Assembly (NCBI GenBank): GCA_050008795.1
Contig: JBEKLX010000001.1
Coordinates: forward strand, 3,455 to 67,454
Length of the DNA: 64,000 bases
Reading direction: 5' to 3'
DNA from: Verrucomicrobiia bacterium
Lineage (GTDB): Bacteria > Verrucomicrobiota > Verrucomicrobiia > Palsa-1439
A program made the position numbers and the translations under genes. Positions 2,544 through 62,909 of this stretch are shown piece by piece. Each line of letters starts with the position of its first letter. Positions within the stretch are counted from its first letter, which is position 1. Below the pieces are notes generated by a model. It was not told the origin of the DNA and did no database searches. It saw nothing but the letters and a program-made list of their open reading frames with translations.

Positions 2544-4223
2544 CTATCTTCTTACTTCGACGATTGTGCCTTTGAAAATCTCCAGCGCTTTCTTGATCAA
2601 CGGATCATTGCGAAACTCGTCGAGGTTTTTGCCTGCTCCCGCAGTCGCGGGGTTATCTACCGCAGGCGCACCGTGCGCTTTTGGCACCGGCGCGGGTGGC
2701 GTGGATGATGGTTCGGTCGCCTCATCGGTCACATCGAACCTCAACGACACGTTCATGCGTAATTTCTCACCGAGCTTGCCTTGGAGCAGTTCGCGATTGC
2801 GCACGGTGTCCACGAACTCGCGCCGTTCGGCAAATTCAGGATCGAATCCGATCACGACCACGTTACCTTGCAGACGCAACGGTCTGGTACCGACAAGATA
2901 GCTCTTTGCCAACGGCGTAACCTTGCCGAGATGTTCCACCGCATATTCCCAGGCTTCGGAGAGTGAAACCGACGTTGTAGAGGCCGTCGTCTCGGCGGCA
3001 GGGATTGGCCGGGCTCGCGACAGCGCAGGGCTAGGCGCCCCGACACCCGTGTCGGGGCTCCCACGAGACGAAAAAAGTTCGCTTTTCAACTCGTTTAATT
3101 TCCTCAGCAATGCGTCGAGGCTGACCGTTTCGCGCGCTTTGATGGCTGTAACGACCGCAATCTCGAACAGGATCCGTTTCGAGAGCGCATACCGCAGTTT
3201 ACCTTCCGCCGCGGCCAGCGCGTCAATGATCCGCAACACGATATCGGAATCAATCCGCTGCGCTTGTGCCTTGAGCAAATCCAGCTCGGTTTCGGGGAGT
3301 TCGACGCATATGTCTGTCGGGGCGAGCGTGACCACGAGCAGATTGCGAAAATGATCGAGCAGTTCGGCCAACAGCCGCTGCAAATCTTTGCCGGCCTCGT
3401 CGAGTTCCTTGAGCACTTTAAGCGCCACATTTATTTCCCCGTTGATAATCGCATCGGTCAGCGTCGCCAGTTGTTTGTGGGCGACGAGACCAAACACGCC
3501 GAGCACGTCTTTTTCGGCAATCTCGTCACCGCAAAAAGCGATCAATTGATCGAGCGCGCTTTCAGCGTCGCGAAGTCCGCCTTCGGCGCCGCGGGCAATA
3601 GCCAACAGCGCCGCGTCGTCGATCTTCACCTTCTCGTCCCTGGCAATTTCCTGAAGCCGTTTGACAATGAGATTCGCAGGTATGCGGCGCAGATCAAACC
3701 GTTGACAACGAGAGAGAATTGTCGGCAGCACCTTCTGCGGCTCGGTCGTGGCGAACAGGAACTTCACGTGCGCCGGCGGTTCTTCCAATGTTTTCAGGAG
3801 GGCATTGAACGCTGCCGCGCTCAGCATGTGGACTTCGTCGATGATGTAGATTTTGAACTTACCGCGCGCGGGGGCGTACCGCACCGTGTCGCGCAATTCG
3901 CGCACTTGTTCGACGCCGTTGTTGCTCGCGCCATCGATCTCCAACACATCAAGGGAGCGGCCTTCGGCGATTTCCTTGCAGTTGTCACACTTGTCGCACG
4001 GCGTGGCGGTCGGGCCTTTCACGCAGTTCAATGCCTTGGCGAAAATACGCGCAATTGACGTCTTGCCAGTACCGCGCGGGCCGACAAACAGATAGGCGTG
4101 GGCGAGCCGCTGTTGGTCGATGGCGTTCTTCAGGGTCGTCGCCACGTGTTCCTGGCCCACGACTTCATCGAACTGCTGTGGCCGCCATTTGCGCGCCAGA
4201 ACTTGATATTGTTGCTGTGCCAT
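2544..4223 (-). CDS. dnaX: DNA polymerase III subunit gamma/tau
   Basis: 559 aa with an AAA+ Walker A motif (GPRGTGKTS), Walker B (IYIIDEVHMLS), sensor motifs and a zinc module (CDKCDNC). No AAAAAAG frameshift heptamer was seen. Confidence 0.95.
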   Translation of the reverse strand: MAQQQYQVLARKWRPQQFDEVVGQEHVATTLKNAIDQQRLAHAYLFVGPRGTGKTSIARIFAKALNCVKGPTATPCDKCDNCKEIAEGRSLDVLEIDGASNNGVEQVRELRDTVRYAPARGKFKIYIIDEVHMLSAAAFNALLKTLEEPPAHVKFLFATTEPQKVLPTILSRCQRFDLRRIPANLIVKRLQEIARDEKVKIDDAALLAIARGAEGGLRDAESALDQLIAFCGDEIAEKDVLGVFGLVAHKQLATLTDAIINGEINVALKVLKELDEAGKDLQRLLAELLDHFRNLLVVTLAPTDICVELPETELDLLKAQAQRIDSDIVLRIIDALAAAEGKLRYALSKRILFEIAVVTAIKARETVSLDALLRKLNELKSELFSSRGSPDTGVGAPSPALSRARPIPAAETTASTTSVSLSEAWEYAVEHLGKVTPLAKSYLVGTRPLRLQGNVVVIGFDPEFAERREFVDTVRNRELLQGKLGEKLRMNVSLRFDVTDEATEPSSTPPAPVPKAHGAPAVDNPATAGAGKNLDEFRNDPLIKKALEIFKGTIVEVRR

Positions 4224-4337
4224 AAGTCTGCAACTGTGACCGGTGACTGGTTGATTTGATCTCCAATCACCAATTACCGATCACCGAAAAAACGGTCGTG
4301 CACCCCGCTTCGACCAACTACGTCGGTTTACCCATCG

Positions 4338-4455
4338 CGGTTGAAGCTCCAGTCAGGCGACCCGACGGCACATGGAACATCGAGCTTACCGTTGCTGTCT
4401 TCCGACTCTGGCGGGGTTCACAGGCAACCATTGCATCGGACCCGGCCTTCAACGC
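4338..4455 (-). ncRNA. ffs: Candidate small (4.5S-type) SRP RNA
   Basis: Minus-strand RNA ...CCCCGCC-AGA-GUC[GGAA]GAC-AGCAAC-GGU... has a GGAA tetraloop on a 3-bp stem and a 3/6 asymmetric loop (AGA / AGCAAC), resembling SRP domain IV (E. coli UCC[GGAA]GGA with AGG / AGCAGC). The termini pair (GCGUUGAAGG with CUUCAACCGC) to give a ~118-nt hairpin. Position upstream of dnaX matches known scr-dnaX synteny, and ffh is present in the window. Not verified with a covariance model. Confidence 0.45.
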
Positions 4456-4635
4456 CGCGCCGCGAAGTGCGCCCCCACGTCGCCGCCTGCACGGGGAATT
4501 CAGCCCAGCTGGAGCGGGTTGCTGGCCTGCCCCGAATCGCTTCGGGGCAGAGGGAACCGCTACCTCCCCGCCTAGCACGACCAAATTGGACTCGACCCGC
4601 CGTTGCGGCGGCGGCCCGAATCATATTCAAAAAAC

Positions 4636-4711
4636 TGGAGCCAACGGTCGGAATCGAACCGACGACCTGCGGTTTACGAAACCGCTGCTCTACCAGCTGA
4701 GCTACGTTGGC
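4636..4711 (-). tRNA. tRNA-Thr (anticodon CGU)
   Basis: Cloverleaf GCCAACG-TA-GCTCAGCTGGTAGAGC-A-GCGGT-TTCGTAA-ACCGC-AGGTC-GTCGG-TTCGATT-CCGAC-CGTTGGC-T-CCA, 76 nt with encoded CCA. A GTTTTTTG run follows the 3' end. Confidence 0.9.
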
Positions 4712-32088: not shown

Positions 32089-32142
32089 GCACCTTGCGTG
32101 ATACATCGGATACCGATGTATCGACCCGATTCAACGCTGATA
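32089..32142. repeat. 54-bp direct repeat, copy 1 (two palindromes), flanking the TA module
   Basis: GTGATACATCGGATACCGATGTATCGACCCGATTCAACGCTGATATATCAGCCA. Contains the 10-3-10 palindrome GATACATCGG-ATA-CCGATGTATC and the palindrome CTGATATATCAG. 52/54 identical to the copy at 32738-32791. Confidence 0.9.
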
Positions 32143-32156
32143 TATCAGCCACTTCG

Positions 32157-32593
<437 letters not shown>

Positions 32594-32737
32594 TGTGATT
32601 TCCTGGACAGTGCTCACGCGCCGAATATAGGACAGATGTGCCTTCCCCGCAAGTCTTCAGTGATTCCAGTAGTTTTGACGGCCACAACTCGGGGGCGACT
32701 GGTGAATCGGGGTAGAGCGCGGGGGCGGCTATCTCCC

Positions 32738-32791
32738 GTGATACATCGGATACCGATGTATCGGCCCGATTCAACGTTGATATATCAGCCA
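32738..32791. repeat. 54-bp direct repeat, copy 2
   Basis: GTGATACATCGGATACCGATGTATCGGCCCGATTCAACGTTGATATATCAGCCA, located ~145 bp upstream of the antitoxin start. Confidence 0.9.
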
Positions 32792-33207
32792 GTTGCTTGT
32801 ATCGACGGTGTGAATACTTCCGGTCGGCACAGAGACATAGTCGCCACGGCAAATCGACCGGGGTGCGCAACCCCAACCTCTTTGTCAATAGGGATAGATG
32901 GGTAGAACATGCTCCCGATGCCTCCGCCCTGTCTTTCCTAATCTCGACCCGCCGAGGTGTGGTGTCCACGCTGCAGGCGTGTTCTTCACGCGCGCCGGCT
33001 TTGCGGCATGCAAGAAACCTAGGGAAATCATGCATAGGAACCGCGGTACAACTTGTGCTAATAGAGTGTGGCAACGCGTAATTGGTGGGGAGATTGTAGA
33101 TGTTCTTGGTGTATTTTGCCTGATCATGGTAGTTAGACAATAATCGGGGAATTCGGTTAGAGTGATCGGCCGCAACGTGACGCACCTTTTTTGAGGACGA
33201 ATAAGAA

Positions 33208-46217: not shown

Positions 46218-47126
46218 ATGACAGTGCATGTCGCAACCGAAGATTTCCGTGGTAAACGGCTCGACCGATTTCTTCAGGCGGAATTACCGGGACATTCGCG
46301 CGTGTCTCTGCAAAAGCTGATCGAACAAGGCGACGTGCTCGTCAACGGCAAACCCGGTAAACCGAGCTACAAAGTGCATACCGGCGACAAGATCTCTGTT
46401 GAAATTCCGCCGCCGCGACCGCTCGAAGCCCGGCCTGAGGAAATACCACTCGATGTGCTGTATGAGGACAACGATCTCATTGTAGTCAATAAACCGGCCG
46501 GCATGGTCGTGCATCCCGCTGCGGGCAATACCGAGCACACGCTGGTCAACGCGCTCCTGCACCATTGCCGCGGCAAACTTGCCGGCATCGGCGGTGTCCA
46601 ACGACCCGGCATCGTTCATAGACTCGACAAAGGCACCACTGGCTGCCTCGTCGTTGCCAAAACCGACACGGCGCACCAATCTCTCGTAGCGCAATTCAAG
46701 GCGCGCGGCATAAAAAAGATTTACCGGGCCGTCTGCTGGGGAAATTTTACTAAGAACAGCGGTGCAATCGAGACGACCATTGGCCGTAGCGCGCATGACC
46801 GCAAAAAGATGTCGACCAATCCCGCAACAGCGGGACGCGGACGCACCGCACTGACCGATTATCGCGTCCTGAAACAGCTTGGCGAACTTGCGCTCGTCGA
46901 ACTTACGCTGCACACGGGCCGGACACACCAGATTCGCGTCCACATGGCGCACATCGGCCATCCTATCGTCGGCGATGCTGTTTATGGCCGTGCAGGATCT
47001 CCCTTTTCAGTTGCTCGCCCGTTGTTGCATGCTTATAGACTTGGTTTCACGCATCCGCGCACGGGAAAGTTCGTGGAATTCGAGGCACCGATTCCCAAGG
47101 ACATGTCAAAGATATGCCAAAGCTGA
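46218..47126 (+). CDS. rluD: 23S rRNA pseudouridine synthase, RluA/RluD family
   Basis: S4 domain plus the catalytic motif [16 protein letters not shown]. Confidence 0.85.
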
Positions 47127-47839
47127 ACGAAATTGTGGACGAAACCATCGCGGCGCTGGAAGAAATGAAACGCTCCGGCGTCACACACGTCGAGGTATCC
47201 CGCACGACGTTGGAAGAGTTGGGCAAAGTGCCCGTTACCCATCGCGGTCGGGAGACCGCTTCCGCACCAGAAAATACCGAGCTCGCTTCCGTAGAGGCGC
47301 GCGCCAAAGTCTGCGTAAAATGCCGCGAACTCGCGCAGAGCCGACACAACGTCGTGTTTGGCGTCGGCGATCCGCACGCGGAATTGATGTTCATTGGCGA
47401 GGCACCGGGACGCGACGAAGATTTGGAAGGCGAACCGTTCGTGGGCCGTGCTGGCGAACTGCTTACAAAGATCATACAGGCAATGGGCTTAAAACGGCAC
47501 GAGGTGTACATCGCCAACGTCCTGAAATGCCGGCCACCTGAAAACCGCGCACCGTTGCCCGAAGAAGCGGCGAACTGTCTGCCCTACCTGCTCTCGCAGA
47601 TTGAGTTGATCAAGCCGAAGGTCATAGTTGTGCTCGGTGCCACCGCGATGAAAGCGCTGTTGGACATCCAACTCGGCATCACCAAGATACGCGGCAACTG
47701 GTACACATTTCGCGATATACCGATCATGCCGACGTTCCACCCTGCCTATCTGTTGCGCAATCCCCCCGCCAAGAAAGAAGTCTGGCAGGACATGCAGGCC
47801 GTGCTCGCCAAGCTTGGCCGTGAAGCGCCGAAGCGATAA
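47114..47839 (+). CDS. Uracil-DNA glycosylase, family 4
   Basis: Family 4 motifs GEAPGRDED and [12 protein letters not shown], with a 4Fe-4S-type Cys pattern. The last 13 nt overlap repeat P1. Confidence 0.85.
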
Positions 47840-47869
47840 CGGCATCTATCTCTCGCAGAGTACGCAGAG
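47827..47869. repeat. Repeat family P1 (42 bp), copy 1
   Basis: GCCGAAGCGATAACGGCATCTATCTCTCGCAGAGTACGCAGAG. 41/42 identical to 48994-49035, with a partial copy at 50516-50539. Confidence 0.85.
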
Positions 47870-47897
47870 GCGCAAAGCGGACAGGAACGTATGGGCG

Positions 47898-48332
47898 CTA
47901 CGTTAACGGTGTTTTTGTGGACGAGGGTTGCTTACCAGTTAACTGGTTAACCTCATGTCGGAGCTTCTTCAATTGCAGTTGCGCCATTTCATCCTGAATG
48001 GGCTGCACTTCCTTGTGCCATTTGCCAAATCCGTAGATCATAAGAAATACCGACCCTACGATAATCACTACAAGCGCTATTTCAAAAAACTTCCTGTCAG
48101 AGACTGCGAGTTCCCGTCGCTTCTCTAAAACCAGTTTCTTCGCTGCATCTGCCGGCAAGGGATTGGCGACTTGCTTGATCGATTCGATTTCGACGACCGT
48201 CTGAAGTACGAGTTCGTTGGTTGAGTGGACAATATAGATATATGAACCAGTGCTAAAAACGAACAGAAGCAGTCCAAAAAACGCATAGAACTTGTAGATG
48301 TTGTCGGTCGGGAGTGGGATTCTGCTTTCCAT
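47898..48332 (-). CDS. Hypothetical two-TM membrane protein with a coiled-coil C-terminus
   Basis: 144 aa with low GC (~45%). TM helices at ~17-40 and ~95-115, then a C-terminal coiled coil (QDEMAQLQLKKLRHEVNQL). No recognised family. Confidence 0.5.
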   Translation of the reverse strand: MESRIPLPTDNIYKFYAFFGLLLFVFSTGSYIYIVHSTNELVLQTVVEIESIKQVANPLPADAAKKLVLEKRRELAVSDRKFFEIALVVIIVGSVFLMIYGFGKWHKEVQPIQDEMAQLQLKKLRHEVNQLTGKQPSSTKTPLT

Positions 48333-48489
48333 AACGTTGCAGTATCAAAGCAGAGTCGCGAATGACTATCAAGGATTACGATGTGCCGTTGGCGCGTGGA
48401 CGGCTGGGCGAGCCGTCCCTACCCCACGACCTTCGTGTCCCCCGAAAGGGATTCGGGGTAAACTTCGTGGTGAATCTGCCGCTTCTCCT

Positions 48490-48526
48490 CTTTGAGATTG
48501 ACACGCGGGTGGGCGGCGCGGATTAT
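48490..48526 (+). promoter_or_regulatory. Repeat R2 carrying a sigma70-like promoter (TTGACA-17-GATTAT), copy 1, upstream of the DUF4870 gene
   Basis: CTTTGAGATTGACACGCGGGTGGGCGG recurs at 49177-49207 (23/24 in the core). The -35 TTGACA is exact. Confidence 0.45.
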
Positions 48527-48597
48527 TTCCGGCAGCGTACTCACATTCGCGGTAAACTGGTGACCGACGAAAAACCCCAAAACCCAAGGAGGTTGTT

Positions 48598-48993
48598 ATG
48601 ACAGACGCGACGACGCCCACCCAACCGACCGCCCCTCAACTCTCGCAGCAGGAGATCGATAGCGGCAAAACCATGGCGATACTGAGCTATATCCCCATCG
48701 CTTTTCTTGGCCTGATTGTGGCCATTATCTCACTCTCGCAAAAGAACAACGCATTTTCGCTTTATCACGCGAAACAGGCGCTCACGCTGTATATCTGTTG
48801 GATTGTTGCCGCCCTGTGTTGTGTCCCGCTCTTTTTCATCTGCATCGGGTTTCCGCTGGTGATGGCCGTGAACGTGGCTGGACTGGTGTTGTGCGTTCTA
48901 GGGATTATCAATGCCAACTCGGGCCAATGCAAACCGCTGCCCCTGATCGACAAATTCGTCGACAAGTGGTTTGGGAAGATTCAGAAAGTCTAG
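48598..48993 (+). CDS. DUF4870-family small membrane protein
   Basis: 131 aa with a strong AAGGAGG RBS. Motif ILSYIPIAFLGLIVAII...YHAKQAL with 3-4 TM helices. Confidence 0.65.
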   Translation: MTDATTPTQPTAPQLSQQEIDSGKTMAILSYIPIAFLGLIVAIISLSQKNNAFSLYHAKQALTLYICWIVAALCCVPLFFICIGFPLVMAVNVAGLVLCVLGIINANSGQCKPLPLIDKFVDKWFGKIQKV

Positions 48994-49160
48994 CCGAAGC
49001 GATAACGGCATCTATCTCTCGCAGAGAACGCAGAGCTTTTCACCTCTTTGCGCCTTGGCGGCTTTGCGTGACCGCGGTTGCCGCGAAAACCACATCGCGG
49101 CGTTTGGCGCACTCAGCGGCGCCGTCTCCGCTACGCTTCGGCTCCGTCGGACTCGGCTTT
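48994..49160. repeat. Composite repeat: P1 copy 2 (48994-49035) followed by structured repeat P2 copy A (49077-49160)
   Basis: P2 core GTTGCCGCGAA..CGGCGGCGTTTGGCGCACTCGGCGGCGCCGTCTCCGCTACGCTTCGGCTCCGTCGGACTCGGCTT. Its ends pair (GCCG/CGGC, CGACGG/CCGTCG) around an internal GGCGC...GCGCC hairpin. Copy A is ~88% identical to copy B. Confidence 0.85.
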
Positions 49161-49405
49161 GCGGCCAACACTCCATCTTTGATTGAGATTGACACGCGTG
49201 TGGGCGGTGAAATGACCGGCAAGTTTGCTTGCCCGGTGGAATCCGGTCGGTTACAATGTCTCTGTGAAACTCGACCGACAGGCCGTTACCAAGTCCACGC
49301 TCCAACAGCACGAAGACGATAATTTCGTCCCCGGCACCATCGAGGAACGCGTGTTGATGGTCTGGCCTATTACCCGCGAAGTCGCCGCACTCAGTCCCAA
49401 GCACG

Positions 49406-49885
49406 ATGTGGAACGAAGATTACAGAGACATGTTGTGCGCGTTGAACGCCGAGGCCGTTGAGTACATCCTCGTCGGCGCGTACGCTTTAGCTGCGCACGG
49501 GTTTCCCCGCGCCACGCTCGACATGGACGTGTGGGTGCGACCGTCCCCAGCCAATGCCGACCGCGCTTTCAAAGCACTCTCACGCTTCGGCGCGCCGATG
49601 GCTAACCTTTCAGCGGCGGATTTTGCGAAAGAGGACGCCGTGGTGCAAATTGGCGTCGCACCGCGCAGGGTGGACATCATCACGAGCGTTTCCGGACTGA
49701 CTTTTGAGGAATCGCGTCGGAGCGCATTGTTGCGAGAGATTGAAGGGTTGACCGTACCGATTCTGGCGTTACCCGACTTGATCCGCAACAAGCTTGCCTC
49801 CGGGCGCCCCAAAGACCTCGAAGATGCCAAGCTATTGCAGAAACATCTGCGGCAATCGGCGGGGTCAACTGGCCCAACGCTCTGA
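49406..49885 (+). CDS. Minimal nucleotidyltransferase (MNT-fold) protein, possible TA/defence component
   Basis: G[AS]...D.D signature (ILVGAYALAAHGFPRATLDMDVWV) and a C-terminal LPDLIRNKLASGRPKDLEDAKLL motif typical of a widespread small NTase family. Preceded by the R2 promoter repeat, a TTGCCC-17-TACAAT promoter, and a short overlapping upstream ORF (49357-49461, 34 aa). Confidence 0.65.
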   Translation: MWNEDYRDMLCALNAEAVEYILVGAYALAAHGFPRATLDMDVWVRPSPANADRAFKALSRFGAPMANLSAADFAKEDAVVQIGVAPRRVDIITSVSGLTFEESRRSALLREIEGLTVPILALPDLIRNKLASGRPKDLEDAKLLQKHLRQSAGSTGPTL

Positions 49886-49937
49886 CGCTCCACCCTTCGC
49901 GGTTTTATTCCTTTTCCTTGGTCAGATGACTGAGCCG

Positions 49938-50141
49938 CTAGTCTTCCATGCCGGCCAGTTTCAGAATAGCGCGTTGCAGGCCGGACTTGAGTGACTGATT
50001 GCCATGAACAGGGACGACGATCAGGGCGCGCTCGCCGGGTTTGCCATAGATGTGGTGGCTGCCCTTGATGTGCTTGAGTTGCCAACTGTGTTGTTCCAAT
50101 AGACGACAAACTTCCTTGCCGCTATAGCTCTTTGTGCTCAT
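49938..50141 (-). CDS. hicA: HicA-family mRNA interferase toxin
   Basis: 67 aa: SGKEVCRLLEQHSWQLKHIKGSHHIYGKPGERALIVVPVHGNQSLKSGLQRAILKLAG matches the HicA/YcfA fold signature. Confidence 0.85.
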   Translation of the reverse strand: MSTKSYSGKEVCRLLEQHSWQLKHIKGSHHIYGKPGERALIVVPVHGNQSLKSGLQRAILKLAGMED

Positions 50142-50197
50142 TTACAAACAGGTGGTCATGTCAACCAATCTGCCTTTAGCTGGAGCGGAAGGAACTA

Positions 50198-50404
50198 TCA
50201 GACAGCCACTTCCAGGATTTGCACGTCAGGCTCTGGCTGCCGGCCCTCGCCGCGCAGGGTCTCCAAATAAAGCTCAATGGCCTCGTGGATGTTGCTCCTC
50301 AGTTCCGACAAAGTATTGGCTTGGGAAAAGCAGCCCGGTAAGGCAGGCACTTCAGCCCAGTATCCACCATCAGGTTCCGCGTGGACTGCGATCTTGTAGG
50401 TCAT
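50198..50404 (-). CDS. hicB: HicB-family antitoxin (UPF0150 N-terminal domain only)
   Basis: 68 aa: YKIAVHAEPDGGYWAEVPALPGCFSQANTLSELRSNIHEAIELYLE. Upstream of hicA on the same strand. Confidence 0.85.
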   Translation of the reverse strand: MTYKIAVHAEPDGGYWAEVPALPGCFSQANTLSELRSNIHEAIELYLETLRGEGRQPEPDVQILEVAV

Positions 50405-50413
50405 GGCAGGTAG

Positions 50414-50442
50414 AATATAGCCGACTCACAGCGAGATTGCAA
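50414..50442 (-). promoter_or_regulatory. Putative sigma70 promoter of hicB-hicA (TTGCAA-17-TATATT)
   Basis: On the minus strand: TTGCAA, a 17-bp spacer, TATATT, then the hicB ATG 12 nt later (near-leaderless). Confidence 0.5.
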
Positions 50443-50515
50443 CGGTCGTATTCCAGCGGCAGTGCGGGGCGTATAGGCGTTGGAAAAGTGAGGGCGGGAA
50501 GTACTGCCCGAAACC

Positions 50516-50661
50516 ACTATCTCTCGCTGAGTGCGCAGAGCTTGCCACGTTTCACGTGGACGCTGGGCTCTCTGTGTGTTGCCGCGAACGACGGCGGCGT
50601 TTGGCGCACTCGGCGGCGCCGTCTCCGCTACGCTTCGGCTCCGTCGGACTCGGCTTGTGAG
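50516..50661. repeat. Composite repeat: partial P1 (50516-50539), hairpin CCACGTTTCACGTGG, and P2 copy B (50568-50661)
   Basis: P2-B is ~96% identical (4 mismatches in 94 nt) to P2-C at 51622-51715. It directly abuts the 3' end of the peptidase gene. Confidence 0.9.
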
Positions 50662-50663
50662 AG

Positions 50664-50684
50664 ATTATTCCTTTTCCTTGGTCA
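50664..50684. repeat. 21-bp exact repeat R3 (TTATTCCTTTTCCTTGGTCAG); second copy at 49905-49925
   Basis: Here it encodes the last six codons and the stop (LTKEKE*) of the peptidase. The other copy lies just 3' of hicA in non-coding sequence. Confidence 0.85.
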
Positions 50685-51576
50685 GGAAGGCGATGAACTT
50701 GTCCTCGAACGCCTGCAGGTCTGGGTCGGTGCTGCCGTATACTTCACGCCAGGCGGAGTCGAATCGCGCGCCTTCGCTCTGTAGCTTGACCAGCTTCATC
50801 AGAGGCGTCATGCCGCCGTGCTTGTAGTACAGGAAACTCACCAGCCGCTGCGACTCGATGTAGAACGCCGCGACCTCGTCCTTGGATTGCGGATAATCGA
50901 CGGTGCTGGTCAAATCTTTCAGCGGGATGTATTTGTCCCGGCTCAGATTGTCCGAGATATTCTTGATGGTGTACTGGCGCGCCTTGAGGTAAGCACGGTA
51001 GATGCGGATGCCTTCAAATTCGGCGAGTCCTTCGTTGAGCCACAATGGGATGTCTCCCTTTACGAATCGGTGAAGCACGAGATGAGTCAGCTCGTGCGGC
51101 AGTGTCTGGCCCTGAAACTTGAAGTGCGGACGCGAACAGAAGAACAGTTCGCGTCCCGTACACCAGCCGCCCGTCCACGCGTCCATTTTGCCGTCGCCGA
51201 CGAATTTTCGCCAGGCCTCTTGGTTGAGGAACACGTAAAGGTGGCATTTGCGCTCGAATGAATCCTGCGTGATATCGAGATCTCTCTTGATCCCGGCATA
51301 GGACCACTCGGCCGCAGCGACCAATTGCGTCACCAAAAAGCCCGTTTCGGTGTGGAAGATGAAATGGTCGGATTCGCTGTGTTCCCACTTCACGGTCTCG
51401 AGATTCAGGGCCGTATCACCCTGACGCGACACGTAGCGCTCGCTCAATTCCGCAAACGGCACAACCTTGAGGTTGTACAGATTTTGCACCGGGAAATCTT
51501 CTTCGTCGCCCGTTGCTGCTTGACCGCAACAAATGGCTGCAATGGCCAGACCGACAAGCGCTCTGACGAGGTTCAT
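50665..51576 (-). CDS. Peptidase MA-family (zincin) protein, secreted
   Basis: HExxH...E zinc-binding arrangement (HELTHLVLHRF...NEGLAEFEG; Peptidase_MA_2-like). Signal peptide from the ATG at 51576 (MNLVRALVGLAIAAICCGQA). Flanked by P2 copies B and C. Confidence 0.7.
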   Translation of the reverse strand: MNLVRALVGLAIAAICCGQAATGDEEDFPVQNLYNLKVVPFAELSERYVSRQGDTALNLETVKWEHSESDHFIFHTETGFLVTQLVAAAEWSYAGIKRDLDITQDSFERKCHLYVFLNQEAWRKFVGDGKMDAWTGGWCTGRELFFCSRPHFKFQGQTLPHELTHLVLHRFVKGDIPLWLNEGLAEFEGIRIYRAYLKARQYTIKNISDNLSRDKYIPLKDLTSTVDYPQSKDEVAAFYIESQRLVSFLYYKHGGMTPLMKLVKLQSEGARFDSAWREVYGSTDPDLQAFEDKFIAFLTKEKE

Positions 51577-51621
51577 GACCGCTTGTATAGATTCCGTCCG
51601 CCGCAAGTTCCAGCGAAATCT

Positions 51622-51715
51622 TCTCTGTGTGTTGCCGCAAACGACAGCGGCGTTTGGCGCACTCGGCAGCGCCGTCTACGCTACGCTTCGGCTCCGTCGG
51701 ACTCGGCTTGTGAGA
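51622..51715. repeat. Structured repeat P2, copy C
   Basis: TCTCTGTGTGTTGCCGCAAACGACAGCGGCGTTTGGCGCACTCGGCAGCGCCGTCTACGCTACGCTTCGGCTCCGTCGGACTCGGCTTGTGAGA. Lies in the divergent region between the peptidase and epimerase genes. Confidence 0.9.
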
Positions 51716-51743
51716 AATAACCCCTCTTATTCCGGTTTCGAGC

Positions 51744-52772
51744 ATGGCAACTTTTCAGGATTGGTTTTTGCGAGGCGGCTCTTATACTCGCGTTGTGCAA
51801 AAGGTCCTCATCACTGGCGGGGCGGGGTTTATTGGGTCGCATCTGGCCGAGGCATTGGTGGCGGCGGGCAAGGAGGTCGCCGTCCTCGATGATCTCAGCA
51901 CCGGGTCGCTCGACAATCTCACGGCATTGCGCAAACACAAACAATTCCAGTTCACCGAAGGCTCGGTGCAGAATGAGGCGGTGGTGACGCGGTTGGTCGC
52001 AAAAGCGGATTTTGTGTATCACCTCGCTGCGGCGGTGGGCGTTGAGTTGGTGGTGCGCAGGCCGGTCCACACGCTGGAGGACAACGTCCGCGGCACGGAG
52101 AACGTGTTGGCGGCGGCCAGCCGACACGGCACAGGCGTGTTGCTAACGTCGACGTCGGAAGTGTACGGCAAGAGCGAGAAGGCGTCTTTCAGTGAGGACG
52201 ATGATTTACTGATTGGTCCACCGAAATTCGCGCGGTGGGGGTACGCCTGTTCAAAATTGTTGGATGAATTTCTGGCGCTCGCGTACCAGCATGAGAAGCA
52301 GTTGCCGGTTTATATCGTGCGATTGTTCAATACCGTTGGGCCGCGCCAGACTGGCCGGTACGGGATGGTGGTGCCTCGGTTCGTGCAGGCTGCAGTACGC
52401 GGGGAGCCGATTGTCATCCACGGCGATGGAAAGCAATCCCGCTGTTTCTGCCATGTGAGCGACGTGGTGCGGGCATTGGTGAATTTGCCGGGGTATCCGC
52501 AGGCGGTCGGACAGATCTATAACATCGGTAGCACGGAGGAAGTAACGATACAGGAACTGGCGGAACGGGTGAAACAGTTCACGAAGAGCCGGTCGGAGCT
52601 GCAGTTCGTCCCGTACGACGAAGTATACGCGAAGGATTTTGAGGATATGCGACGGCGCGTTCCGAGCATTGAGAAGATCCGGCTTCTGACGGGATGGCAG
52701 CCCACGAAATCACTGGATGAAATCATCCGTCGGACAGTGGAGTATGCCCGGTCTGAAGACGCTGGCCGGTGA
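51744..52772 (+). CDS. NAD-dependent epimerase/dehydratase (extended SDR; UDP-glucuronate decarboxylase / UDP-sugar epimerase-like)
   Basis: Rossmann motif ITGGAGFIGSH and catalytic Y..K (YACSK). Confidence 0.8.
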   Translation: MATFQDWFLRGGSYTRVVQKVLITGGAGFIGSHLAEALVAAGKEVAVLDDLSTGSLDNLTALRKHKQFQFTEGSVQNEAVVTRLVAKADFVYHLAAAVGVELVVRRPVHTLEDNVRGTENVLAAASRHGTGVLLTSTSEVYGKSEKASFSEDDDLLIGPPKFARWGYACSKLLDEFLALAYQHEKQLPVYIVRLFNTVGPRQTGRYGMVVPRFVQAAVRGEPIVIHGDGKQSRCFCHVSDVVRALVNLPGYPQAVGQIYNIGSTEEVTIQELAERVKQFTKSRSELQFVPYDEVYAKDFEDMRRRVPSIEKIRLLTGWQPTKSLDEIIRRTVEYARSEDAGR

Positions 52773-52805: not shown

Positions 52806-52881
52806 TGGAGCCGGCGATCGGACTTGAACCGATAACCTTCTGATTACAAATCAGATGCTCTGCCAATTGAGCTACGCCGGC
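52806..52881 (-). tRNA. tRNA-Thr (anticodon UGU)
   Basis: GCCGGCG-TA-GCTCAATTGGCAGAGC-A-TCTGA-TTTGTAA-TCAGA-AGGTT-ATCGG-TTCAAGT-CCGAT-CGCCGGC-T-CCA, 76 nt with encoded CCA. Confidence 0.9.
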
Positions 52882-54554: not shown

Positions 54555-54630
54555 TGGCGGCCCCAACGGGATTCGAACCCGTGTACCCAGATTGAGAATC
54601 TGGAGTCCTAGGCCTCTAGACGATGGGGCC
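54555..54630 (-). tRNA. tRNA-Glu (anticodon CUC)
   Basis: GGCCCCA-TC-GTCTAGAGGCCTAGGAC-T-CCAGA-TTCTCAA-TCTGG-GTACA-CGGGTTCGAATCCCG-TTGGGGCC-G-CCA, 76 nt. Confidence 0.85.
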
Positions 54631-61005: not shown

Positions 61006-62340
61006 CTACGGCCTGATGGCCATGGTCATCAACTCCACTGTCCTGTCGGTTGCGCCGACATTGGCGGCGATGACGCGTTGGGCGGAAGCGGTAATCTTTC
61101 CGCGAAGGTGTTCATCCTGCAGCAAATCCTGTAACGCATGACGCAGTTCGTACACGTCCTGCACTTGCACGCAGGCATCTTCAGCGACGAACTGCCGCGA
61201 GATCTCCAAAAAATTCTCCATGTGCGGACCAAACACAACTGGATGACCACTCGCCGCGGCCTCGACGATGTTCTGGCCGCCCTGCCCCACCAAACTTTTG
61301 CCGACGAAGATTACCGTGGCGATTTGGTAGAAGCGCCTTAACTCGCCGGTCGTGTTCACCAGCAGGCAGTCCGGCTTGTCCACCACTGCTCCGACAGGAG
61401 TCGCGAGTCCTTCTCGGACCTGACCCACGGCACTGCGCAGTATCAAGCTCACCTGCTTGTGCTTCGCCAGTTCTACGATCTCTGGCGCGCGTTCGACATG
61501 CCGCGGCACCAGGACAAGAAACAGGTCGGGGAACTTTGCGCGGAGCTGCTGAAGCATGTCGAACAGGATTTCATCTTCACCGGGGTGCGTGCTACCGGCG
61601 ACGAGCACGGATCGCATCGGCGCGATGCCGATTTGACGTAGAATCTGCGCGGGATCGAACTTCGCGGCAGCGACGTTCTGCGGCAGCGCAGCGTCGTACT
61701 TCATATTGCCGGTCATGTGGACACGGTCGCGCGGCACGCCTGCGGCAAGGAAGTTCTCCATATCCTGCGGACTTTGCGCGCAGACAAGGCGCAACTCACC
61801 GAACACGCGGCGGAACAACCAGCCAACCTTCTGGTAGCCCAGCGCGGAACGAGGCGACATCCGGCCGTTGACGAGAAAAACCGGGATGCCTCTCCGTGCG
61901 GCCTCCCAGACGTGGTTCGGCCACAACTCCGATTCGATCAGGATGATAAAATCGGGTTGGATGAGGTTGTAGGCGCGCTTCACCGTCCACAAAAAATCCT
62001 GGGGGAAATACAGCAATTCGACCTCTTTCGGCAACCGTTCCCGAGCCAACGCGTAGCCAGTTGAAGTGGTCACGGTTAGAACCATCTGGTACTGCGGGAA
62101 CGCGTGGCGGAGCGACTGGAGGAGTCGCAGTGTGAGGTTGACTTCGCCGACGCTGACGGCCTGAATCCAGCAGCGTGGCTTCAGCTTTTTCTCCAACCGC
62201 TGCCGAACTTCAGGGGCGTAACTGCCAAATCGTTGGGAAAAATTTTCCCGGTACTTCCCGCGCTTCCACATCTTATAAAGAAACACTGGACTGAGCACGA
62301 CAAAGCCCAGCGCATGGAGAACCGTGTAAAGCAACCTCAT
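61006..62340 (-). CDS. waaA: 3-deoxy-D-manno-octulosonic acid (Kdo) transferase
   Basis: 444-aa ORF with similarity to glycosyltransferase family 30 (SVGEV...). Confidence 0.85.
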   Translation of the reverse strand: MRLLYTVLHALGFVVLSPVFLYKMWKRGKYRENFSQRFGSYAPEVRQRLEKKLKPRCWIQAVSVGEVNLTLRLLQSLRHAFPQYQMVLTVTTSTGYALARERLPKEVELLYFPQDFLWTVKRAYNLIQPDFIILIESELWPNHVWEAARRGIPVFLVNGRMSPRSALGYQKVGWLFRRVFGELRLVCAQSPQDMENFLAAGVPRDRVHMTGNMKYDAALPQNVAAAKFDPAQILRQIGIAPMRSVLVAGSTHPGEDEILFDMLQQLRAKFPDLFLVLVPRHVERAPEIVELAKHKQVSLILRSAVGQVREGLATPVGAVVDKPDCLLVNTTGELRRFYQIATVIFVGKSLVGQGGQNIVEAAASGHPVVFGPHMENFLEISRQFVAEDACVQVQDVYELRHALQDLLQDEHLRGKITASAQRVIAANVGATDRTVELMTMAIRP

Positions 62341-62909
62341 CGGGCTGTAACAATACCGAACTCAGCGGGTCGATGCGACGAGTTTTTTGCCCCAGTTGCC
62401 GCTTGCGGATCGCGCCTGACGGATTGCCGCAAACACGACATTGCGGGTTTGCGTGCCCGCATCTCGTCGGACTCGGTTCGTCCCGCAGTCGCAGGACTCG
62501 GCTTCCGGACCGGCAGTCCTGTTGTTGGTAGCAGTGTAAAGATGCGCCCCGACTTCACGGCATGGTAAGATTGTCGTGCAGGGATTCTCGGTTCTGCTAT
62601 AATTAGCTTGATTCTATTGCTACATCCGGCGTACTGGCTAAGTTGAGTCCGCACATGAACGGGCATGAAGGTAAAGGAGGTGCAGCAGCGATAACAGCAG
62701 GAGTATAGGGCCGGGTCTCTCTTTTCCCCAGTAATTGCGATTCACAACACCCGTAGCCGTCGTATCGAACGGTTCTTTAACATAACAGCAAAGGCAGAAT
62801 GGATACCATGCCGCGGCATAACCATTTGGAATCCGTCTGCTGGCCATTTCAGCAGCACCGGTTCTCCCTGCTATCTGATCGGGGACTCTCCTCGCCAGTC
62901 TTACCCCTG

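Follow-up and report, generated by a model that had tools for sequence, protein, structure and literature searches.

The question addressed here is what kind of structure is formed by a block of small accessory genes, separated by near-identical intergenic repeats, at 47.8–51.7 kb of a 64-kb stretch of DNA from a Verrucomicrobiia bacterium (contig JBEKLX010000001.1; the whole stretch is called the window). The block sits between two conserved housekeeping genes, which encode a uracil-DNA glycosylase (UDG) and a sugar epimerase, and its repeats were designated P1, P2 and R3. An initial annotation, made from the sequence alone, had likened the layout to an integron cassette array lacking an integrase (CALIN), to an island mobilised by repetitive extragenic palindromes (REP) or miniature inverted-repeat transposable elements (MITE), and to a single undescribed defence or addiction system. 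We consider it probable, with moderate confidence, that the block is an accessory hotspot islet of independent modules which has been colonised by REP/MITE-like repeats. In this best explanation the islet spacers carry at least three dispersed families, namely a GTAG-tagged REP, P1-type palindromes and P2-type hairpin arrays; the REP/MITE-type proposal describes essentially what P1 and P2 are.

The data consisted of the window from the source genome and of 8-kb pieces from other genomes, cited below by L or P numbers. Relatives were retrieved using the UDG protein at 76–85% identity, and their contigs were then collected.

Gene content between the UDG and epimerase genes

The anchors and the genes of the block are as follows.

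47114..47839 (+): family-4 UDG; PF03167, E = 6.6e-43; conserved left anchor
47898..48332 (−): 144-aa predicted membrane open reading frame (ORF) of no family; no Pfam, NCBIfam or PADLOC match
48598..48993 (+): DUF4870 small membrane protein; PF09685, E = 1.2e-12
49227..49885 (+): nucleotidyltransferase (NTase) module, made up of promoter-like site, small ORF and NTase; recurs in other contexts
49264..49461 (+): small ORF with GTG start, about 65 aa; overlaps the NTase start by 56 nt; no Pfam family
49406..49885 (+): DUF6036 NTase; PF19502
49938..50141 (−): hicA; PF07927, E = 8e-18, 64.7 bits
50198..50404 (−): hicB; PF15919, E = 2e-11, 44.4 bits
50665..51606 (−): MA-clan zinc peptidase (HExxH; Peptidase_MA_2); PF13485, E = 3.4e-8
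51744..52772 (+): NAD-dependent sugar epimerase/dehydratase; PF16363 and PF01370; conserved right anchor

The UDG–epimerase interval is a true variable hotspot, and the block within it is accessory, as had been proposed. The RluD gene adjoins UDG in all relatives, and the interval beyond it differs from one relative to the next. It is empty in L045, where UDG and epimerase abut, and it holds a DUF6348 gene in L050, a Peptidase_M50 gene in L171, a gene for a zinc-ribbon membrane protein in L044 and an ars operon on contig P0005. A 145-aa secreted protein and an MA peptidase are encoded in L048/L049. The interval of L047 contains DUF3303, NmeDI_C (NmeDI-like), NERD, a DUF4258/DUF2283 pair, cytochrome c, DUF4870 and the peptidase, and that of L043 contains three small ORFs, a methyltransferase with a MutH-like endonuclease, DUF4870, hicBA and the peptidase. 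In L172 DUF4870 comes directly after P1. The conserved syntenic block that would have spoken against an accessory origin was not seen among the relatives.

Within this interval the genes are gained and lost module by module, independently of one another. The DUF4870 gene has 87–88% nt identity to the copies in L043 and L047, and is absent from the interval of L045, L048, L050 and L171. The NTase is absent from the interval of L043; hicBA is present there and absent from L047 and L048. Orthologues of the peptidase adjoin the epimerase gene in L043, L047 and L048. The 144-aa ORF was found in the window genome alone among the relatives sampled. A 145-aa protein encoded at the same place in L043 and L048 was considered as its orthologue and rejected (BLASTP E = 2.0 and 0.62), the two 145-aa proteins being 66% identical to one another. 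The low GC content noted for parts of the block is a property of the 144-aa ORF (45–48% vs about 57%) and applies to no other part.

The block genes lie on the strands −, +, +, −, −, − in order. The hicA and hicB genes are on the same strand and 56 nt apart, and they make up a HicAB type II toxin–antitoxin pair. A promoter scan bore out the promoter-like site TTGCAA-17-TATATT (50442–50414) already proposed before hicB, and the hicBA unit including this promoter occupies 49938..50442 (−). The suggestion that TTGACA-bearing repeats serve as promoters held before DUF4870, where the scan gave TTGACA-17-GATTAT, and failed before the NTase gene, where no acceptable −10 follows. The NTase has a promoter-like site of its own (TTGCCC-17-TACAAT at 49229–49257). 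The peptidase start assigned by the gene caller is 51576, and the N-terminus is signal-like; the feature as listed extends to 51606.

The NTase module is self-contained. Positions 49227–49858 match L173 and L175–L177 at 84–85% nt identity, all in non-UDG neighbourhoods, and the small ORF is kept alongside the NTase in each. Because the small ORF is conserved with it across these other contexts, the NTase is probably one half of a two-gene, toxin–antitoxin-like module.

At the Rfam gathering threshold nothing was matched in the whole window except signal recognition particle (SRP) RNA and tRNAs. The large-type bacterial SRP RNA (4296–4580, −; 120.9 bits) adjoins tRNA-Thr(CGT) (4636–4711, −). 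The gene for tRNA-Thr(TGT) (52806–52881, −) follows the epimerase gene at a distance of 34 nt, and that for tRNA-Glu(CTC) (54555–54630, −) lies further on. Although a tRNA gene is close by, the islet is not inserted in it.

Dispersed repeat families in the spacers

The repeats and duplicated segments of the window are listed below.

47827..47869 (+): P1A, 18-nt head and truncated left arm; no right arm; fold z = −0.03
48398..48422 (−): GTAG-tagged REP hairpin
48492..48526 (+): D3a, 25-nt repeat with TTGACA (48492–48516); forms the DUF4870 promoter-like site
48993..49076 (+): P1B, head and left arm (48993–49035), then a degenerate right-arm-like tract; fold z = −0.28
49077..49159 (+): P2A, three-hairpin dispersed element; nhmmer E = 9e-13
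49183..49207 (+): D3b, partial duplicate of the DUF4870 −35 region; 24/25 identical to D3a; no usable −10
49905..49925 (+): R3a, exact 21-mer that duplicates the 3′ end of the peptidase gene; immediately past the stop of hicA
50498..50665 (+): P1C, complete heptad palindrome; right arm interrupted by P2B
50578..50656 (+): P2B, inside the right arm of P1C
50665..50685: R3b, exact 21-mer; the last six codons of the peptidase plus stop
51631..51709 (+): P2C, of the subfamily of P2B including flanks (CTCTGTGTG ... TGTGAGA); nhmmer E = 4e-15
62422..62504 (+): degenerate P2-family copy outside the islet; nhmmer E = 0.027 (weak member)

The P1, P2 and R3 repeats are real and lie where they had been placed. 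Dinucleotide shuffling of the window (100 shuffles) gave an expectation of 0.01 matches for the P2 20-mer (≤3 mismatches) and of 0.00 for the P1 core, against three observed matches of each. An nhmmer profile recovered four P2 copies in the 64 kb, three in the islet and the weak one upstream of waaA (Kdo-transferase, PF04413, at 61006–62340, −), which had been described as a degenerate P2-like tract and is a weak member of the family. P2B and P2C are 92% identical over 107 nt, flanks counted.

P2 is dispersed well beyond the islet. Its exact 22-nt tail, TCGGCTCCGTCGGACTCGGCTT, was found at 41 loci, 40 of which are from 14 Verrucomicrobiia species-representative metagenome-assembled genomes (MAGs) of peat, palsa, lake and Danish soil origin, with up to 8 copies per MAG; the 41st match, inside a Desulfobulbaceae coding region, is probably due to chance. 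The tail occurred on none of the viral contigs scanned (IMG/VR). In 44 copies the plan is a head hairpin, R-TTGCCGC..GCGGCG, followed by 0–3 hairpins framed by TTGC...GCG, then GTCTC, a short linker and the tail, which can itself form a small hairpin. In P2A these parts are H1 (GCCGCGA..TCGCGGC), H2 (GGCGC..GCGCC), GTCTC, linker and tail. Genes beside P2 copies include those for SmpB, MTHFR, a LysA-type decarboxylase, PMT_2/TPR proteins, an ABC permease and an AbiEii toxin, and among Pfam matches of 141 ORFs flanking P2 the TPR families dominate (best 25 of 130 families). Since copies stand beside housekeeping-type genes, the family is not tied to accessory cassettes. Ubiquity of the repeats beside core genes had been named as a finding that would tell against cassette boundaries; it largely applies to P2 and to the P1 core, each of which was found at multiple unrelated loci within or across genomes, yet both are concentrated in the islet within the window.

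The P2 hairpins became visible only through comparison of copies. A permissive scan for TTGC hairpins proved too noisy for counting, and flank-defined modules and the nhmmer profile were used instead. Sixty distinct modules were chosen by their flanks alone for a covariation test. Stem positions 3–6 paired in 80% of them, as against 52% after shuffling of partners (maximum 61% in 500 shuffles), and GC, CG, AT and TA were all seen at identical stem positions; the hairpins are therefore under structural constraint. Compensatory changes were also reported by RNAalifold in hairpin 2, so that the proposed check for covariation between copies came out positive. Single-sequence folding of either strand was not better than that of shuffles (z = −0.3 to +0.8, + strand).

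The three islet copies share hairpin 2 (GGCGC..GCGCC) and the linker CGCTACGCT, and neither was seen in the copies of other species; a local origin of these three follows. P2 in the window is a locally amplified, lineage-specific subfamily of a clade-wide modular non-coding multi-hairpin element. Presence/absence polymorphism was found at orthologous sites. P2B and P2C are both missing in L043, and in L048 the P2B site is unbroken (CTCTCTGTG running straight into AGAGG) and a one-hairpin orthologue of P2C is retained.

Three further P2 settings were noted. In L024 (about 4176), L027, L033, L039 and L041 which represent five species, the tail abuts the stop codon of an orthologous PMT_2/TPR glycosyltransferase-like gene. 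No two of these elements have the same set of hairpin modules, in number and type, as if the element had long been kept at this site while its modules turned over. L009 carries two copies (4537 and 5989, −) at a distance of 1452 nt; both immediately precede a gene start with near-identical leader sequence, and an AbiEii-type NTase gene lies between them. In L176 a one-hairpin P2-type element (3060–3105; TTTGCGCCAGACACATCATTGATGCGTCTCGTCTGACTCGGCTT) is found just downstream of the NTase module in its different context, and P2 therefore neighbours this module at two unrelated places.

An alternative is that P2, and perhaps P1, is a structured RNA, such as a stabiliser of 3′-untranslated regions, a processing site or a small RNA, and not mobile DNA. 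The covarying stems would suit an RNA, and are equally expected of REP-type elements recognised as single-stranded DNA. The invariance of the tail across 14 species, the locus kept at the PMT_2/TPR stop codon in five species with differing hairpin numbers, and the excess of G.T wobbles over A/C mismatches (16 vs 8, stem positions 3–7 summed, strand shown) also fit a transcript. However, the orientation of P2 relative to flanking genes was inconsistent in the window and the 41 loci (as judged from crude ORF calls, compromised by repeat-spanning ORFs), no U-tract follows the hairpins, folding energies are no better than those of shuffles, no Rfam match was obtained even at E ≤ 5 in 47700–51900, and close relatives differ in the presence of P2 at orthologous sites. 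We regard the RNA alternative as unlikely, and retain the reading of P2 as a REP/MITE-like repeat.

P1 proved to be the left arm of a 70–130-nt imperfect palindrome built of CRCAGAG/CTCTGYG heptads at a 9-nt pitch. P1A consists of the head CCGAAGCGATAACGGCAT and the left arm (TCTCTCGCAGAG TA CGCAGAG), and it begins with the last 13 nt of the UDG gene (GCCGAAGCGATAA). P1A and P1B are identical at 42 of 43 positions; the right-arm-like tract of P1B is made of CTTTGCG/CTTGGCG heptads. Both are bare left arms with no significant fold. P1C comprises a degenerate head, a left arm, a central hairpin (CCACGTTTCACGTGG) and a right arm (GCTCTCTGTG..TGAGAGAT). Its positions 50498–50540 are the third, weaker copy of the 43-mer, 63% identical over 43 nt, and the 24-nt core at 50517 has one mismatch to the search pattern. 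Full P1-type copies in relatives fold as long hairpins (z = −4.9 to −6.9), and orthologous unbroken P1C sites are present in L048 (CTCTCTGTGAGAGG) and L043. When P2B was excised from P1C in silico the palindrome folded with z = −4.24, and none of 200 shuffles was as good; P2B therefore sits inside a P1-type right arm, as does P2C, which is located in a remnant right arm between the peptidase and epimerase genes.

The P1 core, TCTCTCRCAGAG-NN-CGCAGAG, was present on at least 120 metagenome contigs of 37–72% GC. Among the matches listed, the third heptad and a variable centre, often with its own hairpin, are also shared; the matching right arm, CTCTGYG NN CTCTGYG NN CTCTGYGAGAGA, lay within 300 nt of 12 of 130 left arms by the strict pattern, and the P2-tail 10-mer GGACTCGGCT occurred in 2 of 120 P1-core loci. 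The P1 and P2 families are therefore independent. The core pattern was also found on nine IMG/VR contigs classed as viral (L178–L186). The 18-nt head is a copy of the UDG stop region, was seen at the hotspot alone (window, L043, L044, L047 and L048) and is always on the UDG-sense strand; it was rejected as a part of the dispersed element, being missing beside P1 cores in the 120 metagenome loci among the matches listed. Within the window heptad tandems are confined to the islet. Elsewhere the P1 core is found next to genes for KaiC, histidine kinases and polysaccharides. A further array punctuated by repeats lies on an AT-rich metagenome contig of an unrelated organism (L160), in which four P1-type palindromes in one orientation (3510, 5621, 8299 and 10951, +) separate genes for polysaccharide biosynthesis and two small genes for MNT-type nucleotidyltransferases.

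These palindromes could be taken for the recombination sites of a cassette-capture system analogous to attC, served by a recombinase in trans, with the block as a CALIN-like array. They are imperfect, of attC-like size and variable in the centre, those of the window, L043, L047 and L048 share one orientation and lie where genes meet, and in L160 they lie between small NTase cassettes. The segment of 144-aa ORF and DUF4870 is flanked by P1 copies that contain the duplicate of the UDG stop region. Yet no RYYYAAC/GTTRRRY pair was found on either strand of the window (a crude test by regular expression, 50–150 nt apart), gene calls gave no integrase, transposase or other recombinase, either within 10 kb on the window side or in those loci of relatives that have gene calls, and the integron proposal was dropped. 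The genes are of mixed orientation and cassettes have their own promoters, the NTase module (49227–49858) has its boundaries elsewhere than at P1, the arms P1A and P1B are truncated and do not fold, and P1-core elements stand as well beside the KaiC, histidine-kinase and polysaccharide genes. Cassette capture at P1 is in our judgement distinctly unlikely. The broader idea that the heptad-armed palindromes are sites of an unrecognised cassette-exchange system with a trans-acting recombinase draws on their spread over contigs of 37–72% GC, their single orientation at the islet junctions and their place between MNT-NTase cassettes in L160, and is more of a long shot; if it were true, such a system would generate small integrase-less arrays like the block, with the multi-hairpin P2 elements as parasites of its sites.

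The third family, the GTAG REP, is represented by the hairpin GTAGGGACGGCT-CGCCC-AGCCGTCC at 48398–48422, classified according to PMC3733652, where a REP is described as a single short hairpin with an unpaired GTAG or CGTC tag at one end and REPs nested within longer palindromes are reported from other bacteria. It alone satisfied the sequence definition (GTAG with GGACGGCT/AGCCGTCC). Copies were found in L004, L031, L037, L043, L047, L175 and L176, some of them with compensatory stems (GGACGCCT/AGGCGTCC), which implies that the lineage has a REP family of the type associated with REP-associated tyrosine transposases (RAYT).

Junction duplications and the turnover of modules

Repeats at module junctions had been claimed, and were borne out for most junctions. 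Besides P1 and P2 there are short direct duplications. R3 is an exact 21-mer as described, the first copy being at 49905 and the second starting at 50665, one position later than had been given; it does encode the last codons of the peptidase, six of them plus the stop. The two loci with hicBA, the window and L043, have both copies, and L047 and L048, which are without hicBA, each have R3-like sequence at the peptidase 3′ end. D3a is conserved upstream of DUF4870 in L043, L047 and L172, and D3b lies just left of the NTase module. The segment containing the 144-aa ORF and DUF4870 is bracketed by the near-identical P1A and P1B. The order of these direct repeats (20–45 nt) is interleaved, P1A < D3a < P1B < D3b < R3a < P1C < R3b, which insertions simply nested in one another and duplicating their target sites do not produce. 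Such an order would, we infer, come from recombination of the unequal or Campbell type, repeated among similar spacers. A separate 58-nt direct repeat at 32097–32154 and 32737–32794, whose copies are 95% identical and separated by 640 nt, contains the palindromes GATACATCGGATACCGATGTATC and TGATATATCA and is unrelated to P1 and P2.

The course of events proposed for the islet is as follows. The palindromic and hairpin repeats would be non-autonomous DNA of the REP/MITE kind that spreads by way of single-stranded hairpins, with P2 landing preferentially inside P1-type palindromes. They would build up in the islet because they are tolerated in its spacers. There the copies could offer portable homology, or fragile sites, at which recombination that is unequal or between strains would shuffle modules and leave 20–45-nt direct repeats at the junctions; R3 and the TTGACA 25-mer are short junction duplications, which would stem from the placement of hicBA and of the NTase module. 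Both the mobilisation mechanism and a causal role of the repeats in cassette turnover are put forward here as inferences from these patterns.

Several observations weigh against a simple colonisation of the islet by selfish repeats. No transposase, RAYT or other mobilising enzyme was seen in the window or the loci of relatives, and mobility is therefore deduced from insertion polymorphism and dispersal alone. The 3–4-nt direct repeats GTG, GTG, GCG and GCGG that flank four copies are suggestive of target-site duplications but may instead belong to the element, as GCG often follows the P2 tail elsewhere. All P1 copies and three of four P2 copies of the window are in the islet despite about 20 other intergenic gaps of >120 nt, so that the association is stronger than simple random colonisation predicts. 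The hotspot P1 copies of the window and relatives are all on the UDG-sense strand and mostly at gene junctions, a placement also predicted by a site-specific mechanism. Finally, some P2 copies occupy an orthologous position, the 3′ end of the PMT_2/TPR gene, in five species, which speaks for retention or function more than for purely selfish spread.

Two weaker alternatives remain to be weighed. One, suggested earlier, is that the DUF4870 protein, NTase, HicBA and zincin work together as a single undescribed system of defence or addiction. The genes are clustered, and HicBA and the NTase fold are common in defence and toxin–antitoxin contexts. However, each gene is independently present or absent in L043, L047, L048 and L172, and genes which vary one by one among relatives make no unit. 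PADLOC (E ≤ 0.01) gave no match for any of the seven block proteins, close homologues of the NTase occur in unrelated contexts with the small partner ORF alone, and the genes have separate promoters on mixed strands; the joint system is very improbable. Equally improbable is a metagenome-assembly artefact with repeat-induced chimeric joins, for although the block lies on a contig of a k141 short-read metagenome assembly (ENA ERZ27250073 k141_102949, 86.7 kb) with repeats of 40–107 nt and several related contigs end near repeats (L044, L172), the repeats are below k-mer length or only about 90% identical, and independent assemblies of other samples gave the orders DUF4870-P1-hicA-hicB-P1-peptidase-epimerase (L043) and DUF4870-P1-peptidase (L047).

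The repeats also have consequences for annotation. The ORF at 48798–49322 (+; 174 aa) is spurious, running through P1B and P2A, and shorter spurious ORFs run through P2B and P2C (50531–50827, +; 51533–51892, +), the lengths overall being 98–174 aa. Such repeat-derived ORFs give recurring peptides, for example AAFGALGGAVSATLRLRRTRL, and are likely to have been mis-annotated as hypothetical proteins in these MAGs. As P1 and P2 repeats break metagenome assemblies and spawn spurious ORFs, a catalogue of them would improve the annotation of MAGs of the Planctomycetes–Verrucomicrobia–Chlamydiae (PVC) group.

Comparison with known systems

Literature searches on REP and MITE in Verrucomicrobia and with the repeat strings yielded only the general REP classification paper; neither the P1 nor the P2 family was found described in the literature searched. 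With REP, BIME and REPIN elements P1 and P2 share short intergenic hairpins, a conserved unpaired tag, compensating stems, mosaics, occurrence at many loci including those beside housekeeping genes, and occasional nesting in longer palindromes, and a true GTAG REP lies in the same islet (48398–48422). Unlike REP, the P2 hairpins carry TTGC...GCG frames in place of GTAG or CGTC, so that P2 is no member by definition; its stems are of 5–7 bp with loops of 8–12 nt, its array ends in an invariant 22-nt tail, and no RAYT gene was seen with it.

BOX elements of Streptococcus pneumoniae are intergenic hairpins of the form boxA-boxB(n)-boxC, present in tens of copies or more and with no transposase of their own. 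P2 resembles them in being modular and non-coding, and in that the end modules are fixed while the internal ones vary in number. It differs in sequence and host phylum, which are unrelated, and in that the internal modules of P2 differ in stem and are not one box copied.

The Correia elements of Neisseria are MITEs. P1 is like these in being a 70–130-nt imperfect palindrome with conserved arms and a variable centre, intergenic and sometimes overlapping gene ends. In contrast to MITEs, its arms consist of three 7-nt units at a 9-nt pitch, the arm spans contigs of 37–72% GC, far wider than in a typical MITE family, and neither a parent insertion sequence nor a clear target-site duplication was identified for P1.

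Integrons and CALIN resemble the block in having small, mostly single-gene modules, palindromes of similar size in one orientation and no integrase nearby. The block departs from them in its lack of R''/R' cores, in the promoters that DUF4870, the NTase module and hicB carry themselves, in mixed orientation, in palindromes that also flank non-cassette genes and in junction duplications of 20–45 nt in place of a 7-nt core. Integron cassettes are mostly promoterless and in one orientation; an integron is marked by an IntI-type tyrosine recombinase and a CALIN by two or more attC sites within 4 kb, and neither such a gene among those called nor an attC site by the crude scan was found here.

By-products of the comparison are a modular element of several hairpins running head to tail, which ends in the invariant 22 nt and is common to many Verrucomicrobiia species, and a heptad-armed long palindrome whose arm recurs in environmental bacteria of very different base composition. 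The nesting of P2 in P1 and the concentration of both in the islet provide a concrete case for asking if repeats drive the shuffling of modules.

Chromosomal integration hotspots and defence islets are fixed intervals between core genes, the contents of which differ among relatives. The interval studied here is of this kind, holding different restriction–modification, toxin–antitoxin, resistance and orphan genes and being empty in some relatives. It differs from them in that it is very small (0–8 kb), has no integrase or tRNA target and appears to turn over module by module. The main value of the analysis is corrective: a layout resembling an integron or a defence system is better read as a small hotspot islet with independent turnover and dispersed repeats.

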